In this document: in pieces, positions 17,942 through 38,014 of the stretch
Layout of the letters: each line of letters starts with the position of its first letter
How positions within the stretch are numbered: the first letter of the stretch is position 1
Virus record (IMG/VR): IMGVR_UViG_3300035701_000030
Coordinates: 1 to 61,499 of that record
Source: a virus
Taxonomy: Duplodnaviria > Caudoviricetes
Length of the DNA stretch: 61,499 bases
Strand: one strand, 5' to 3'
Translations under genes and position numbers: made by a program
The notes under the pieces: generated by a model
Database searches by the model: none
The model's input: only the letters and a program-made list of their open reading frames with translations
What the model was told of the DNA's origin: nothing

Positions 17942-20671
17942 ATGTTACAAGTGAGAATTAGCACTCCAGAATTCTCTGACGGGGTAAACTTTGTTGATCC
18001 CATAGTACTAGAAAAAGCAACTGATATATCCTTGCGCAAAACAGTTAGTTCCAGCGAGGAAGGCATTCAGTTTAAAGTTCCTATCAACGATATTAAAACT
18101 CCTTTTATAACCTATCTTAGATGGTGGGAATGTTGGGATACTGAAACAAATACTAGATTAAATTATGGGCCTATAGAAAGCATTAATAGGTCAGGGGGAG
18201 ATTCCAAATCTGTTTCGGGGCCGGGAAGATCCGCCTTGTTTAGAGATTATTATAAGAGTATTCAAACATTTTATTATCCAATTAACGTATTCTTAGATGA
18301 TCTTCGCTATGAAAACCTATCTTCCGAACCTAGAACAACTGCTCTTATTAATCAGGATACCTCTTCTGCCTATTATGGCGTAAGTAAGCGTAGCAAGGAT
18401 TATGTTATAGATGAACAAACGGGGTATGTTGCCGTGGGAAGAGATACACCCTCTAGGGGTGTTATTAAAACATCCCAATTTTGGTCGGGAATAGGCAGAG
18501 CAGATCATATTATAGTTGATCTTGGAGAAAAGTATAAAATATCAAAATCTAGGATAATTCTTCCGTGGTGGGGAGGATCTACGCAGACTTATAGTAGAAC
18601 ATATGATTGGAGTTGGCAGTATTCAAACGATAATGAGGGCTATACTTCTATATATACATCGCCAATACCTAACTACAGCAAAACTACTAATGCAGGTGGT
18701 ATAGGCCAAACTATTTATACAGGAGAGAGTGGCTTTGAGGATAGCCAGCATACAGCCACTAGCGGTGCGATAGATGCTAGGTATTGGAAATTAGATATAA
18801 GCAATACTCATGCTTGGTACGGAAATTTCTTTGTTGCAGGAACCCTTACTGATGAGTGGGCGTGGGAGTGCGGTGGTAGTAACACGTTTAAAGGTGATTC
18901 TAAGCCATCTCCCGCTACTACGAGCGGGTCCATTATACCTACTACGGATATCAACCCAAATAGCGATTGTTATGCTTCTGTTATTGAGCTAAGTCTTATG
19001 AAAAAGATAGTTGGGATGGATACTATTACTGACTTAGCCTATCACCAAATTCAAGGTGATAATAAACAAATAACTTATTGGCACATGCCAACAGAAGCGG
19101 AAATGATAGGGGGAAAAAAGTTTGAACCGGGAACGTTCTTTAGAAAGATAAAAGTATCTGGTTCCCCCGGAAAGATTAAGGATGAGTATAACACTATTAT
19201 TGCTGATGGCAACAATAGTGGTAATTGGATAAAAACCCCTGCTTATTGTAGGTTGGTTTTATTTGAGAGTGCCGCTAGGGTATTAGAAGTAGATACATGG
19301 CCCGGTAAAATGGATGCCTTTTCTTATGGTGGTAGCTATTCCTATAGTGAAATGGCTAATGACTATGCTATTTTAAATTTTAGGGGAATATCAATAAAGT
19401 GGTTTGCTACTATACCATCTGGTAAAACTCCCGGTACAGTATCAATAGAGCTTAGAAGTAAAACAGGAACAGACTCTTGGAGTGATTGGGATTTTCTAGA
19501 AGACAGTCTAACCCTGCCCTCTGATGTATCAGGGACAAAGGTTTGGGAGATAACTGTAGAATCAGAGATTTTAGTAGATGAAACCTCTTATCAACTAAGA
19601 ATAACTAATCTGGATGGTGGATTTGTATCAATAGACGCGTTTGCGGGGTATTGGTCAGCTACCATGTCGGATTATAATGAGGATCACGCTCGTATATCGT
19701 TTAGAATCCCCGCTGAGATTAATCAGATATTTGATTCTAAATTTACTAATGGTAGTGCCTATAAATTTATCGAGCCCGGAGAATATACTAAAGGCGGGTT
19801 GGGATTTATGGGAGATAGGGTTATAATATATTCCAGAAAAGGTGTTGATTATGGCCTAATTGATCTAGCTATAATAGGTAAAACTTCCGTAGGAGAAGCC
19901 GTAGTTATACACATACCGGGGGGTAATCCAAACGGGACTCTTACAGTTGATTTGGATAATCCTACGGATGTACCACAGTTTATTGTTTTTGATAGTAATG
20001 ATTATTTTGAAAATGGTCTTCCGTGGGATTGGTATAGTGCTATTGTTTATAAGCCAGAAGATCCTGATCCCATGTGGGTTGATGGTTGGTCTGTTCACGA
20101 AACCAACGGCCTTAGTGTTAAGTTTATGAATACTAATTACTTGGATATAATAAAATCTACATCTGAGGCTCTTCAAATGGAGTGGGATGTTACTGAGCTA
20201 GGTCTAAAAATTGTTCCGAGATTAGGTGAGGATACAGAAATTATATTTGCTGAGGGTCGAGGTACAACCATTGATATCGATGATACAGAAGACATTGGTG
20301 AAGTAGCTACTATGCTACTTGCTACTGGAGCCGATATAGATGGACTTCCCATGTCTACAATAGTAGAGGATAAAAAGACAAGAGCAATAATGGGTAGAAC
20401 CATTCAAAGAACTTATGACTCTCTTAGGAATACAGCAGACTATTTTACACTAATCGGAGCTTCTAGAACAGAGTTAATTAGGAGAAGAGAGCCACAGAAA
20501 AGAGTAACTGTTAAGCGTGCAACTGATATGCCTATACATGAGGGAGATAGTTTTATTGTTAAGAAGGCAGAGTTAGAATTAAGAGTTCGTGCAAATAGCA
20601 TCACTAGAACCCAATCAAATGGTGGTACAGAATGGTCTGTGGAGTGTGTAAAATGGCCAGCGATAGCTTAA
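17942..20671 (+). CDS. Tal-like baseplate hub / minor tail protein with inserted carbohydrate-binding-like domains
   Basis: Follows Dit; hub-like ends (LDIIK..SEALQMEWDV..LG..T.I.FAEG); internal IIVDLG..ARYWKL and two galactose-binding-like repeats (FRG.SIKW..SIDAF; FMGDRVIIY..KG.DYG..VDGW). Confidence 0.7.
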   Translation: MLQVRISTPEFSDGVNFVDPIVLEKATDISLRKTVSSSEEGIQFKVPINDIKTPFITYLRWWECWDTETNTRLNYGPIESINRSGGDSKSVSGPGRSALFRDYYKSIQTFYYPINVFLDDLRYENLSSEPRTTALINQDTSSAYYGVSKRSKDYVIDEQTGYVAVGRDTPSRGVIKTSQFWSGIGRADHIIVDLGEKYKISKSRIILPWWGGSTQTYSRTYDWSWQYSNDNEGYTSIYTSPIPNYSKTTNAGGIGQTIYTGESGFEDSQHTATSGAIDARYWKLDISNTHAWYGNFFVAGTLTDEWAWECGGSNTFKGDSKPSPATTSGSIIPTTDINPNSDCYASVIELSLMKKIVGMDTITDLAYHQIQGDNKQITYWHMPTEAEMIGGKKFEPGTFFRKIKVSGSPGKIKDEYNTIIADGNNSGNWIKTPAYCRLVLFESAARVLEVDTWPGKMDAFSYGGSYSYSEMANDYAILNFRGISIKWFATIPSGKTPGTVSIELRSKTGTDSWSDWDFLEDSLTLPSDVSGTKVWEITVESEILVDETSYQLRITNLDGGFVSIDAFAGYWSATMSDYNEDHARISFRIPAEINQIFDSKFTNGSAYKFIEPGEYTKGGLGFMGDRVIIYSRKGVDYGLIDLAIIGKTSVGEAVVIHIPGGNPNGTLTVDLDNPTDVPQFIVFDSNDYFENGLPWDWYSAIVYKPEDPDPMWVDGWSVHETNGLSVKFMNTNYLDIIKSTSEALQMEWDVTELGLKIVPRLGEDTEIIFAEGRGTTIDIDDTEDIGEVATMLLATGADIDGLPMSTIVEDKKTRAIMGRTIQRTYDSLRNTADYFTLIGASRTELIRRREPQKRVTVKRATDMPIHEGDSFIVKKAELELRVRANSITRTQSNGGTEWSVECVKWPAIA

Positions 20672-20898
20672 AACAAGTAGGCAAAGATCTAAAGCACACA
20701 CAGGATCAAACCAACCACTCAACCCGCAGATTTGCTCAAAATTTACCTACAGTAGAAAAAAGTTTAGATAGAGTAGGTACATTATATACGTTTAGGATGG
20801 ATTTTTATACTCATACTACATCTCCTAGTGTACATATTTATATTAAAGTTTTACCCCGTTTTAGAAGTATGAGATATGTTGGTGCAGGAAATGGATAA
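20653..20898 (+). CDS. Small tail-tip protein (paralogue 1)
   Basis: SD GGAG; N-terminus shared with next two genes. Confidence 0.6.
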   Translation: MASDSLKQVGKDLKHTQDQTNHSTRRFAQNLPTVEKSLDRVGTLYTFRMDFYTHTTSPSVHIYIKVLPRFRSMRYVGAGNG

Positions 20899-21583
20899 AG
20901 TAAATCAACTAGGCAAAACATTACAGAAAACTAGAAATGAAGTAAATCAAAATGCCCGACGTGGGGCAGAAAATTTTCCAACTCCTGAGATTTCGGTTAA
21001 AGATTTCAATAGATTATTTACGTATAAAAAAACGTTTGAAGCGCACTCAGATGCCTTAGTCCGTCTTAACGTCGGGTTAAAAGAAATTACCACGCCTTGT
21101 TCTGTTAATCCCCCTATAATTAATAAGTGGTGTAGGTTGAAATTTAATGATGCCGGAATACCGGGCACTATGCTTGAAAGTAACGGTGAATTTATTCTTA
21201 ATGGTGACGGTACGATAACTGTGCCGGATAGCGGCTGCTACTCAATAACACTTACCTCTGCTGCTTGGGGGCTATCTTATACTGCGGGGCTGTCTCAATT
21301 TGCTTCTTTCTATCATAACTATAAGGTAGTAAAGTCTTATACCAAGTATGCTACAGGGTTTATTTCTATTTTAGGCCCATTAATATGGGTAATTCCATCT
21401 ATTACCCACCTATATCAAGTTATAGAAGCTAAGGCAGGAGATACATTAAGTGCATCCCTATCAGAGAATATAGGTGGGTTATGTTCAGGAACTTGGTGGG
21501 GATGTTTACTACATAACGCATTCTTCGGGCTTTCTAATACTTGGATTAAAATTGATTTAATAGCTCTAGCGGAGAGTGTATAA
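20891..21583 (+). CDS. Tail-tip / receptor-binding protein (paralogue 2; C1q/TNF-like head)
   Basis: DGTITVPDSGCYSI..AKAGDTL pattern of trimeric jelly-roll heads. Confidence 0.55.
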   Translation: MDKVNQLGKTLQKTRNEVNQNARRGAENFPTPEISVKDFNRLFTYKKTFEAHSDALVRLNVGLKEITTPCSVNPPIINKWCRLKFNDAGIPGTMLESNGEFILNGDGTITVPDSGCYSITLTSAAWGLSYTAGLSQFASFYHNYKVVKSYTKYATGFISILGPLIWVIPSITHLYQVIEAKAGDTLSASLSENIGGLCSGTWWGCLLHNAFFGLSNTWIKIDLIALAESV

Positions 21584-22842
21584 TGAGAGGTTTACGTAAA
21601 ATAGGGGAATCCCTACAAAAAGATGCTACCGAAACTGCTCATAATACACGCAGAATTGCCGCTAATTTGCCTTTAATCGAGAGAAAGTTAGACATAGTAT
21701 CAGGCGATACTAATTATAAGTTAGAGTTTCCTATAACAGAAAGAAGTCACGCTGTTAGTTTAAACATACAGATAAAGCCAGATAATTGCTGTGATTGTTT
21801 ACCGGGGGCAGAGCCAGCTAGGAGATACATGACGGGATATGCCGACTACTTCTGGAATGAGCAACTTCAAATTATACATGATCCTAGTGGCCATCCTGAA
21901 TTAGACTCTTATCCGCCACACCAACAGGAAAGTGGAGTGGACTATCGAGCAAGATACCATGATCCCCTAGATACAGAGGGAAGTATTACAAACATATGGT
22001 TTGCTTGGGAAAACTATCCTTGGTTCTTCCCAACAGTTGAAAATAACTGGAACTATGGACAATTTCTACCCATGCTTGATGGGGGAATAAGGGTTCCTGT
22101 TAATGGCGTATACACCATGATATTTAGAAACAGGGCAGGAGGAGGTACAACAGATAGTAGCCAAATCGTAGCCTCTATAAAGCGCCTACCTAATGGGGAA
22201 GATACATTTGATCCTACTAAGTGGGAAACTATCTCTAGGAAAATATACTCTACTGCTAGGGAAAATATTTGCACATATATTCCTCTAAGTTGGGCATTAG
22301 GGTGGGGATGGAATCCTGATCCTATAGATATTATTACAGTAGGTGGGGGAGAGTACGCTAAATGTTGCGCCTCTTATGGGCGAAATATAAACTTTGGCCC
22401 AACAGTTATTGAGCGCATAGGGGGACTTTACATAGAAGTTTATGCCTATTGCGTACCACTTAATGAGGGCGATCTTATAGGCGGCTGGCTAAAAGCTACT
22501 GATGTAAATAGTTGGAAACCTAGTGAGTCCAACGGAGCAGAGTCTAGTACTACAATGATTGATTTAATCGGATTAGGTTTTGGAGCATTAACGGGATTAA
22601 TAACCCACGATAATACCGGGCAACCCTTAGAGGGAGTTACAGTAGTTGCTAATAATGGATCAACATCGTTTGAGACACTTACGAATGATGAGGGTAGGTA
22701 TACCTTTTATGATTTAACTCCTGATTTAACTTATACAGTTACTATATCTAAGAATGGGTACTTTACTCAGTCCAAAACTATTAAAATAGTATTTAATGTA
22801 TTAGTGGAGTTAGATTTTATAATATTACACGTACCACAGTAG
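21583..22842 (+). CDS. Tail-tip protein (paralogue 3) with C-terminal carboxypeptidase-regulatory-like domain
   Basis: IRVPVNGVY..LNEGDLI head; C-terminal TGQPLEGVTV..TNDEGRYTFYDL..YTVTISKNGY. Confidence 0.6.
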   Translation: MRGLRKIGESLQKDATETAHNTRRIAANLPLIERKLDIVSGDTNYKLEFPITERSHAVSLNIQIKPDNCCDCLPGAEPARRYMTGYADYFWNEQLQIIHDPSGHPELDSYPPHQQESGVDYRARYHDPLDTEGSITNIWFAWENYPWFFPTVENNWNYGQFLPMLDGGIRVPVNGVYTMIFRNRAGGGTTDSSQIVASIKRLPNGEDTFDPTKWETISRKIYSTARENICTYIPLSWALGWGWNPDPIDIITVGGGEYAKCCASYGRNINFGPTVIERIGGLYIEVYAYCVPLNEGDLIGGWLKATDVNSWKPSESNGAESSTTMIDLIGLGFGALTGLITHDNTGQPLEGVTVVANNGSTSFETLTNDEGRYTFYDLTPDLTYTVTISKNGYFTQSKTIKIVFNVLVELDFIILHVPQ

Positions 22843-23507: not shown

Positions 23508-24698
23508 ATGAGGATATTCTATGTTGGAGATTCGCCTACAGTTGATACAGGCTTTGGCGTGGTTTCCAAAAATTTAATAAGTCGTTTTTATAATATGGGC
23601 TATGAAATAATAGTTTTGGGTATAAACCATAGGGGAGAGCCTTACGATCCAAAGTTATTTCCATATCCCATTCATCCTACAGCCGGATCTAATTTAGACT
23701 CAATGTACGGTTATTCAAAATTTTGGGATCTATACGACCACCTTAAACCAGATATTGTGTTCTTTTTAAATGATCCGTGGGTTATAAGTCAGTACCTCGA
23801 TACAAAACCACAAGATCACCCCGGAATATCTAGGGGAACTAAAACTGTGGGATATTACCCCACGGATGCTGGACCAATAAAAAAAGAGTGGGTAGATACG
23901 CTAAATAAGCTAGATGCTCAAGTCTGTTACTCCAACTACGCAGAAGGCGTAGTAATAGAATCCAATGGGGGAAAGAGGCCATCTAACTTACATCAGATAT
24001 ATCATGGAGTAAATAGGGACGAGTTTTTTCCTGTTAACCAGAGCATTGCTAGAGCAATGCTTAAGATAGATCAAAATGAATTCGTGGTGGGGATGGTTGC
24101 GCGTAATCAGTTTAGAAAACGCTTTGATCTTCTACTGAAAGCGTTTCAAATATTTGCAAAGGGCAAACCAGAGGCTAGATTATATCTACATACAGCTATG
24201 TTCGATGTTGGGTTTGATATTAGTGAATTAATAAGGCAATTAAAATTAGATAAGAAGGTGTATGTAACAAAGGAACTTAGATCCGATAAAGGAGTTCCTG
24301 TGAAAGACCTAAATATTATTTATAATACATTCGATGTGAATGCTTTGATTAGTTTAGGAGATGGGTTCGGACTTCCAGTAGCTGAGAGTATGGCTACAGG
24401 GTGCCCACAGGTCGTAAGCGGCCACTCCTGCCTTAAAGAGTTGGTAGAGGGGCATGGAGGCTTGACTGTTAAAACCTCCGCTTGGATACTTAATACTTCG
24501 GGTATTAATACATGGGGAGGAGTATCTGATGTAGATGATATTGTTGCGCAATTAGAGGTATTATATAAGAACAGGGAGTTACGTATTAGAATGTCAGAAG
24601 AAGGCTATAAATTTATATCGCAAGAAAAGTTTACTTGGGATTTTGCGGCTAATAAATTTCAAGAAATATTTAAAAATCTATTCCATTTAATCAACTAG
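23508..24698 (+). CDS. Glycosyltransferase family 4 (GT-B)
   Basis: TGFG N-terminus, IYHGV, RNQFRKRFD, GDGFGLPVAESMATGCP motif. Confidence 0.9.
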   Translation: MRIFYVGDSPTVDTGFGVVSKNLISRFYNMGYEIIVLGINHRGEPYDPKLFPYPIHPTAGSNLDSMYGYSKFWDLYDHLKPDIVFFLNDPWVISQYLDTKPQDHPGISRGTKTVGYYPTDAGPIKKEWVDTLNKLDAQVCYSNYAEGVVIESNGGKRPSNLHQIYHGVNRDEFFPVNQSIARAMLKIDQNEFVVGMVARNQFRKRFDLLLKAFQIFAKGKPEARLYLHTAMFDVGFDISELIRQLKLDKKVYVTKELRSDKGVPVKDLNIIYNTFDVNALISLGDGFGLPVAESMATGCPQVVSGHSCLKELVEGHGGLTVKTSAWILNTSGINTWGGVSDVDDIVAQLEVLYKNRELRIRMSEEGYKFISQEKFTWDFAANKFQEIFKNLFHLIN

Positions 24699-37390: not shown

Positions 37391-37566
37391 TTATTTGGGT
37401 GATGGGTAATATAGGCCCAGCGATCAGTCCACTCTCCTGCTTTATTATCGTAGACTTGTGACTTTACCCCAACGGACCAGAATCCCCACCTGTTTCGTAT
37501 GTATATTCTAAATGGGTGGCCGTATTTCTTGCTACACTCAGACCACGGATGGTCAATATGTATCAT
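37387..37566 (-). CDS. 59-aa hypothetical protein not in track
   Basis: MIHIDHPWSEC..; ATGA coupling. Confidence 0.5.
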   Translation of the reverse strand: MIHIDHPWSECSKKYGHPFRIYIRNRWGFWSVGVKSQVYDNKAGEWTDRWAYITHHPNK

Positions 37567-37811
37567 AATACATTTTTGTCAAGCCTAGAAAAGTACTCCT
37601 CGTCGAGAATTTCTAGCAAATGTTTTTGGTAAGCGTTTGGCTCTTTCCACTCTTTAGGAAGCGGGTGAATAAAGGGGTCACAAGAACAGATTATAATATT
37701 CCAAGGTTCCCGTTGATCCCCTATGTCTCTTATGTGCGGGCTATGTAGTTTGAATAAGTATGTTAACCAAGCATCTCGGGGAACATTAATCATTCTTCTT
37801 CTTCTTCTCAA
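37563..37811 (-). CDS. Hypothetical protein
   Basis: Packed minus-strand operon. Confidence 0.5.
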   Translation of the reverse strand: MRRRRRMINVPRDAWLTYLFKLHSPHIRDIGDQREPWNIIICSCDPFIHPLPKEWKEPNAYQKHLLEILDEEYFSRLDKNVL

Positions 37812-38014
37812 CGTGGATCATACCGTCCGTCACAATCCCCGACAATATGCATATTTATGTTACAAAATACGCATAATGTTTTGCTTTGATGCGTAGGATC
37901 ATTACATGGAACATACCAATCTTTGCAACAAAGACAACTCTTTTCGTTAAATAACTCATTCATGTCTCTTTCATAAGAATCACTAAGTTCTTCTTTTTCA
38001 AGCAAAGCTACCAT
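37808..38014 (-). CDS. Small Cys-rich protein
   Basis: CLCC..C..H..CVFC. Confidence 0.5.
   Translation of the reverse strand: MVALLEKEELSDSYERDMNELFNEKSCLCCKDWYVPCNDPTHQSKTLCVFCNINMHIVGDCDGRYDPR

Follow-up and report, generated by a model that had tools for sequence, protein, structure and literature searches.

Host range in phages is set by receptor-binding fibres, and it is well known for neighbouring fibre genes to share an N-terminal anchor. In phages with several receptor-binding proteins (multi-RBP phages), a conserved N-terminal anchor recurs on several fibre or spike genes, as in the paralogue families of phiKZ and SPN3US and in the "conserved peptide" of Klebsiella phages. Here, we describe three consecutive genes in a 61,499-base tailed-virus record (IMG/VR IMGVR_UViG_3300035701_000030; "the window" refers to this whole stretch, whose completeness is estimated at about half). 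The genes encode proteins of 81, 230, and 419 amino acids (aa) (genes 1 to 3; products P1 to P3) and, like those of multi-RBP phages, are neighbours at the end of a tail block that share an N-terminal attachment module but differ in their distal parts. Unlike those, they belong to another sequence family, have a much smaller module (66 aa), lie at a siphovirus tail tip, and come in exactly three old types. Judged from the genes themselves, the triplet can be classed as a multi-RBP cassette with a common N-terminal anchor, and binding of the module to a partner is putative. The reading that we favour, with moderate confidence, is a cassette of three trimeric receptor-binding fibres that share a stem-and-neck anchor and each occupy a site of their own.

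Several described systems resemble this arrangement in part. In BppL, the receptor-binding protein of the lactococcal phages TP901-1 and Tuc2009, a helical stem that cups a loop of the holder BppU is followed by a neck of interlaced triple beta-helix and then by a head (PMC4742702). BppL, like the present proteins as we read them, is a small protein from the end of a siphovirus tail module, with an N-terminal helical stem that anchors the trimer, a strand-rich neck of about 30 residues, and an exchangeable C-terminal head; we also count as a likeness the accessory carbohydrate-binding protein encoded beside BppL in Tuc2009 (PMC4742702). The differences are as marked as the likenesses. There is no sequence similarity to BppL detectable with Pfam, PHROG, or PDB sequences; the putative stem-neck here recurs in three paralogues, of which one lacks a head, and the heads are TNF/C1q-like; and here no BppU-like holder was identified, while two paralogues of the distal tail protein (Dit) are present at the tail tip.

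A second comparison is with the myocyanophage Pam3, in which gp24, a homotrimeric TNF-like fibre, is attached to the baseplate through its N-terminal helical bundle (PMC9608196). The combination of an N-terminal helix module with a TNF-like domain, which in gp24 is receptor binding, is common to both (PMC9608196). The Pam3 system differs in having a contractile tail, a single fibre gene with a chaperone, and a glycine-rich distal domain, and no paralogous triplet is described for it (PMC9608196). Other cyanophage structures are also similar, in that the gene 3 head superposes on the short tail fibre CBD of A-1(L) (8ke9) and on an A4 tail chain (9k09). The third comparison is with the tail of virophage DSLV2, where the products of three consecutive gp37-like genes co-purify as a 1:1:1 heterotrimer and where, as here, the three consecutive paralogous fibre genes are kept as positional groups across relatives (PMC12724248). 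The DSLV2 chains resemble gp37 tips and are similar in length (PMC12724248); here the chains are 81, 230, and 419 aa long, carry TNF-like heads, and are known from genes alone.

The three N-termini are homologous. Pairwise BLASTP gave 37% over 52 aa for P1 and P2 (E = 1e-11), 33% over 63 aa for P1 and P3 (E = 3e-12), and 32% over 68 columns for P2 and P3 (E = 1e-5), and 11 columns are invariant in an alignment of all three. The initial annotation, made from the letters of the sequence, had pointed to a motif common to the N-termini of three consecutive plus-strand open reading frames (ORFs) and had named a lack of significant similarity as grounds for giving up its proposal. The peptides it noted do lie at the starts of these ORFs, and the similarity is well above chance, both in these E values (1e-5 to 3e-12) and in a profile with 102 matches (see below). 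The genes are tightly packed: the ATG of gene 1 overlaps the end of the upstream gene, which encodes a 909-aa protein, by 19 nucleotides (nt) and has a GGAG 9 nt upstream, the start of gene 2 and the end of gene 1 coincide over 8 nt, and the ATG of gene 3 has one base in common with the TAA of gene 2. The start codons at 20653 and 20891, rather than those at 20632 and 20876, match the N-termini of orthologues.

The shared module would consist of a helix of about 29 residues followed by about 35 extended, probably strand-forming residues, which we read, by analogy with known fibres, as a putative stem plus neck. In the AlphaFold2 monomer model of gene 1 (114-row alignment; predicted template modelling score, 0.36), residues 2-30 form a helix with a block predicted local distance difference test score (pLDDT) of 77-92, and residues 31-70 form an extended chain with neither intrachain packing nor strands assigned by DSSP (block pLDDT, 64-77). 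Such a lack of intrachain packing is as expected of an obligate oligomer or a docking element, and a triple beta-helix cannot show in a monomer model. Of the "two beta strands" proposed to follow the motif, the alternating hydrophobic pattern is thus present, and DSSP strands are absent from the gene 1 monomer. In the gene 3 model, residues 1-48 and 58-71 have pLDDT values below 50.

When a profile built from the N-termini of genes 1 to 3 was run against 1.84 billion representatives, it matched 102 proteins at an E value of 1e-3 or less, 32 of them at 1e-10 or less. In 100 of the 102, the domain begins at one of the first 11 residues; of the others, one starts at residue 29 and one is a weak match at 351-378. 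This near-universal N-terminal position fits a module that requires a free N-terminal end, and there was no fusion of the domain to other tail proteins among the 102 matches. The matched proteins fall into several length classes (29 of up to 112 aa, 6 of 113-200, 41 of 201-262, 2 of 263-329, 17 of 330-425, and 7 of more than 425); some of the short database entries may be fragments at contig ends, and the shortness of gene 1 itself is confirmed by stop codons in related loci. No Pfam or PHROG model matched the N-domain or genes 1 and 2, and searching the N-domain profile against all PDB sequences gave only three rows, with E values of 1.3-1.7, to unrelated enzymes or designs. The anchor of about 66 residues thus appears to be a new sequence family, represented by 102 clusters in public data and without a Pfam or PHROG model.

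The positions common to all three types are G8, L11, R23, R24, N28, P30, E33, and F49. If the hydrophobic columns 4, 7, 11, 18, 25, and 32 are taken as heptad a and d positions, columns 21 and 28, with their conserved Asn, would lie in the core, and K9, K13, and R23, common to all types, would face outward, as might be expected of a bundle held in a socket. We considered whether a large and a small residue in each core layer could serve as a heterotrimer signature and rejected this: column 25 is F/G/I in the three window proteins, but the Gly occurs only in close relatives of gene 2.

Immediately after the anchor, gene 3 has a P-D-N-C-C-D-C motif (window 21787-21798; gene 3 residues 69-72) that is invariant in all 10 of the aligned gene 3 relatives. 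Relatives of gene 2 have an invariant Cys at that place, within T-P-C-S-V-N-P-P, distant family members have other Cys clusters, and gene 1 has no Cys. The Cys-rich motif could bind a metal or staple chains together through disulphides.

Distal to the anchor, the initial annotation had listed no payload, one head, and a head with an Ig-like domain for genes 1, 2, and 3, respectively, and a Pfam match, structure superpositions, and profile alignment all agree with this. The gene 3 model has a mean pLDDT of 74.4, and the ten-residue blocks of 161-260 and of 281 to the end all average at least 74. With VIA-align, residues 76-330 superpose on TL1A (2qe3_A) with a Z score of 13.9 over 136 of 140 residues (root-mean-square deviation [rmsd], 3.0), as well as on APRIL-BAFF (Z = 13.9), LIGHT (13.8), C1QL1 (12.2), BclA (11.1), and the C1q heads 6z6v (11.2) and 5hzf (10.8), so that the TNF/C1q rows range overall from 10.8 to 13.9; the cyanophage fibre domains mentioned above gave 11.4 (8ke9) and 11.3 (9k09). 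On this modelled structure, we assign the gene 3 head to the TNF/C1q-like jelly rolls. It was resolved only by the all-against-all VIA search. A Foldseek search of the whole gene 3 model against the PDB returned mostly matches to the C-terminal sandwich (pilins and adhesins), with template modelling scores (TM) of 0.15-0.24 by query, and a search of BFVD went no further than low-TM matches to viral proteins that are C1q-like or collagen-like. The sandwich itself matches CarboxypepD_reg (PF13620) over residues 336-402 (E = 5.4e-13; 49.5 bits against a cutoff of 32.3), and residues 334-418 superpose on 5aq0_B with a Z score of 13.6 (81 residues aligned; rmsd, 1.4).

For gene 2, the evidence is homology. 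An hhalign comparison of 14 gene 2 relatives with 17 gene 3 relatives gave a probability of 99.2 (E = 3.2e-19; 217 columns) and extended over P2 residues 1-227 and P3 residues 1-332. Because this match covers the whole length of the protein, gene 2 probably carries the same anchor and a smaller, compact head of the fold of the gene 3 head.

The TNF/C1q-like fold is familiar from trimers of three heads, which is why we consider genes 2 and 3 most likely to form homotrimers. Complement C1q is a useful comparison here: its A, B, and C chains are paralogous and come from neighbouring genes, and each trimer bears three heads on a collagen stalk. The present proteins are like C1q in having TNF/C1q-like heads on an N-terminal stalk, which we read as trimerising, and are unlike it in that one chain is head-less and the stalk would be a short helix and neck.

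Relatives of these genes came from metagenomes. A 5.8-billion-protein collection contained 17 relatives of gene 3 and 9 of gene 2, and a scan of metagenome contigs found nine related loci. By tblastn, neither gene 3 nor the 909-aa protein had a match in 50,697 phage records; IMG/VR queries with gene 3, alignment A4, P0103, and P0016 gave no relatives, and neither did the GTDB genomes, so that there is no prophage and no clue to the host from that source. We then compared the three-N-terminus profile with every ORF of 40 aa or more, read from stop to stop, in the nine loci. Exactly three consecutive ORFs matched in eight of them (L003, L004, L006, L007, L008, L009, L010, and L011); the ninth, L005, begins inside gene 2, and one of its ORFs matched. 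These represent at most seven independent relatives, as L003 equals L004 in the scores of all three genes and the gene 3 N-domain of L005 is the same as that of L008. Identity of gene 3 to the window falls to 28% among the loci, yet the order is constant, with the triplet after the orthologue of the 909-aa protein and, where the locus extends that far, before ORFs of 87 and 70 aa and a glycosyltransferase. The triplet is thus conserved in related phages, in the same order and in three copies, not in the single copy that the initial annotation had named as evidence against its proposal.

That proposal was a 1:1:1 heterotrimeric coiled-coil spike, in which each gene would supply one chain of a single asymmetric stem and gene 1 would serve as the third strand only. 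Much about the triplet is consistent with such an assembly. The N-domain genes number exactly three, one per type, in the window and in every locus other than the one cut short; their position-specific orthology is old and shows neither loss nor homogenisation; the overlap of start and stop codons points to coupled translation; a gene 1 that is head-less and yet selected makes sense as a third strand; and there is the precedent of the three consecutive gp37-like tail genes of DSLV2 (PMC12724248). An obligate stem of types A, B, and C (the products of genes 1, 2, and 3) would give an asymmetric fibre with a bare strand, a small TNF-like head, and a large TNF-like head with a beta-sandwich, which, with a ring of two Dit paralogues, would amount to a symmetry-broken device. 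We regard both the heterotrimer and this device as unlikely. The main difficulty is structural: a fold that is familiar in threes would be present as two heads of unequal size. The chains of DSLV2 are similar in length, whereas the present chains of 81, 230, and 419 aa have only the first 66 or so residues in common. Complex prediction with residues 1-76 of gene 2, residues 1-80 of gene 3, and the whole of gene 1, each chain with its own alignment, gave values of 0.02 and 0.03 for the interface score ipSAE (interaction prediction score from aligned errors) against a mark of 0.32, in a run without controls in which the partner fold was uncertain; these values count neither for nor against binding.

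The payloads also change independently of one another, which is typical of separate modular fibres and suggests that the proteins are modular distal to the anchor. Gene 1 is about 72-79 aa long in the window and six loci, with 76-79 aa for the orthologues in six loci, but in L007 it encodes a protein of 377 aa (P0123; L007 8141-9271), made up of a type-A anchor and a payload of about 310 aa. This payload has no match in Pfam, PHROGs, or PDB sequences; a beta-helix was considered for it and dropped, as searches of the same three collections did not support it. Gene 2 is 230-256 aa long, but 478-482 aa in L009 and L010, and gene 3 is 335-420 aa long across the window and loci. Further afield, a 215-aa type-A family has only its first 66 residues in common with types B and C, and no Pfam or PHROG family matched the payloads of distant members (P0123, L009 gene 2, P0030, P0099, P0103, P0054, and others).

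The N-domains themselves group by gene position, not by phage, and their sequences indicate that the triplication is old. A tree of 126 N-domains (101 database proteins and 25 ORFs from the window and loci, with L001-L003 and P0108 excluded) splits 63/63 with a Shimodaira-Hasegawa-like approximate likelihood ratio test (SH-aLRT) value of 95, although, with 68 columns, many of its forks are unresolved. All eight gene 1 rows fall on one side of this split, the type-A side. All eight gene 2 rows lie within one 13-row group (SH-aLRT, 87), and all nine gene 3 rows lie within one 26-row clade (SH-aLRT, 96), in which 25 of 26 members have a PDNCCDC-type motif. Each type also has residues of its own: column 21 is T/S/V in type A and N in 100% of types B and C, 75% of type B has P at column 32, columns 34-37 are RKLD in 100% of type C, and column 52 is Y in 95% of type A. 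Since column 21 would lie in the helix core, the difference there between T/S in type A and N in types B and C is what a heterotrimeric stem might be expected to display. Position-specific types likewise suggest that each fibre has its own site.

These groupings bear directly on the other alternative of the initial annotation, "interchangeable tips", according to which three homotrimers would compete for one kind of socket to give mixed virions, with the head-less form as a blank. On the inferred heptad, the outward helix positions Q6, K9, K13, E17, R23, R24, N28, and P30 are common to all types, which fits binding to one kind of surface. The idea otherwise fits poorly with three old, position-specific groups that keep their own conserved residues and show no concerted evolution within a phage. 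Moreover, the ratio of nonsynonymous to synonymous substitution rates for gene 1 is 0.08-0.25 in six of six pairs, with synonymous divergence near saturation, which indicates that gene 1 is under purifying selection; a blank that merely blocks sockets would not be expected to be so constrained across relatives. We therefore consider competition for one socket distinctly improbable.

Gene 1 could be an assembly factor or an axial plug that templates, caps, or closes the tip, with genes 2 and 3 as the sole adhesins. It consists of the module and a short tail, in which a P-[KR]-F motif is conserved in most type-A rows, and it is the first gene after the candidate hub protein, with the overlap noted above. 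Rows on the type-A side of the tree, which carry very different payloads of up to 994 aa, have also been counted in favour of this role. No similarity to known chaperone or plug families was found with Pfam, PHROG, or PDB sequences, and as a self-standing explanation of the triplet we give this account only a slim chance. A gene 1 that acts as plug, cap, or assembly factor is, however, compatible with either fibre model.

In the cassette of separate fibres that we favour, the stem-neck would join three chains and plug the fibre into a tip composed of Dit, a giant Dit paralogue, and a Tal-like hub. Each product would most likely form its own homotrimer at its own type-specific site, and the virion would then display two different adhesin heads and a head-less stub acting as an adaptor, cap, or axial plug. 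Trimerisation and anchoring by the module, the homotrimeric state, and receptor binding by the heads are what we infer from the homologies and the gene context; gene order alone makes it plausible that the fibres dock to the Tal-like protein. Several points weigh against this scheme. The head-less gene 1 is selected and is short in most relatives, and a homotrimer model gives it no clear job. The one-of-each triplet, with its overlapping start and stop codons and fixed order, is explained equally well or better by a stoichiometric hetero-complex. Finally, a PDB sequence search detected no relative of the N-domain among solved structures.

The gene context places the triplet at a siphovirus tail tip. 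A siphovirus structural block occupies the plus strand of the first 37 kb of the window, and the order within it is tape measure, Dit, Dit paralogue, Tal-like protein, and triplet (Table 1).

Table 1. Positions of the features discussed, numbered from the first base of the window
Feature	Position	Strand	Remarks
Tape measure protein, 1797 aa	4897-10290	+	PF10145, E 2.2e-18; phrog_4211, E 1.1e-20
Distal tail protein (Dit), 241 aa	10306-11031	+	Atlas structure, TM 0.80 to Dit clusters
Giant Dit paralogue, 2287 aa	11078-17941	+	Last ~235 aa form a second Dit
909-aa protein, candidate docking partner	17942-20671	+	Directly upstream of triplet; Tal/gp27-like hub by structural lead
Gene 1 (type A, P1), 81 aa	20653-20898	+	Shared N-terminal domain and 13-residue tail, without payload
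Gene 1 N-terminal anchor domain, aa 1-68	20653-20856	+	Predicted helix 2-30, then extended segment
Gene 2 (type B, P2), 230 aa	20891-21583	+	Anchor domain and one compact head
Gene 2 N-terminal anchor domain, aa 1-66	20891-21088	+	BLASTP, alignment, type-specific residues
Gene 2 head, aa 67-230	21089-21580	+	Homologous to TNF/C1q-like gene 3 head (hhalign)
Gene 3 (type C, P3), 419 aa	21583-22842	+	Anchor, Cys-rich PDNCCDC linker, large head, C-terminal beta-sandwich
Gene 3 N-terminal anchor domain, aa 1-66	21583-21780	+	BLASTP, alignment, type-specific residues
Gene 3 head, aa 76-330	21808-22572	+	Predicted TNF/C1q-like jelly roll; insertion variable among relatives
Gene 3 CarboxypepD_reg / transthyretin-like beta-sandwich, aa 334-418	22582-22836	+	PF13620 match, structure superposition
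Three small ORFs, 87, 70, and 60 aa	22854-23507	+	After triplet, also in related loci reaching that far
GT4 glycosyltransferase	23508-24698		phrog_2170, E 1.8e-45; between tail and lysis genes

The initial annotation had set the triplet beside a trimeric Tal and a twin Dit. The twin Dit is confirmed: the 241-aa protein resembles Dit, and the last 235 or so residues of the 2287-aa protein are 48% identical to it (E = 4e-73), a fusion that is also kept in L004 and L007. We would guess that the two form a mixed Dit ring of three plain and three giant subunits. The N-terminal 2,050 or so residues of the giant protein contain matches to PA14 (E = 5.8e-7) and DUF7402 (E = 7.1e-8) and a weak, sub-threshold match to F5/8 type C, and its translation shows dozens of short repeats resembling Y-G-Q-A-Q-A-x-I.

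The Tal assignment stands as a structural lead. The Atlas model of the 909-aa protein is similar to hub proteins of the Sipho_Gp37, Prophage_tail, and XkdQ types, with TM of 0.71-0.81 by row, and we treat the protein as a candidate Tal/gp27-like hub. Its orthologue sits upstream of the triplet in the related loci, too. At positions 341-3484 of L009, this orthologue appears as two matches, which overlap on the query (residues 1-512 and 463-909) and are about 210 nt apart; this may reflect an insertion or a change of frame.

Downstream, the 87-aa ORF has 53-89% identity (tblastn) in the loci that reach it, often higher than the conservation of the fibres. No Pfam or PHROG family matched it, and none of the PHROGs, the one collection scanned for them, matched the 70- and 60-aa ORFs. 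The three small ORFs could be fibre chaperones or parts of the tip. The glycosyltransferase is conserved in L003, L004, L005, and L007, and its nearest cultured matches, at 26-33% identity, are in the Synechococcus siphophages S-CBS4 and S-EIVl, the Tetrasphaera phage TJE1, and a Microcystis phage. The ORFs of 214 and 96 aa that lie beyond it, for which Pfam and PHROG scans gave no family match, are taken as lysis genes by position alone. Near 38 kb (window positions of about 37500-38000), the sign of the GC skew flips and the ORFs go from the plus to the minus strand, which marks a divergent or convergent module boundary.

To our knowledge, the sharing of one tail tip by several fibres has been described for only a few cultured phages. 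New here are the sequence family, the very small size of its anchor, and the fixed, old set of three anchor types, one of which is usually bare, as well as the occurrence of predicted TNF/C1q-like heads at the tail tip of a siphovirus that has two Dit paralogues. The anchor family serves as a marker of the putative receptor-binding genes throughout an uncultured lineage of siphoviruses, shows the exact site at which heads are swapped, and includes a conserved head-less paralogue. If the three proteins do co-assemble, they would constitute a second, independent heterotrimeric viral fibre and would put TNF/C1q-like heads to unusual use. Otherwise, the triplet would be a clean example of three fibre types built on diverged copies of one anchor, useful for the annotation of metagenomic phages and for the engineering of chimeric fibres.

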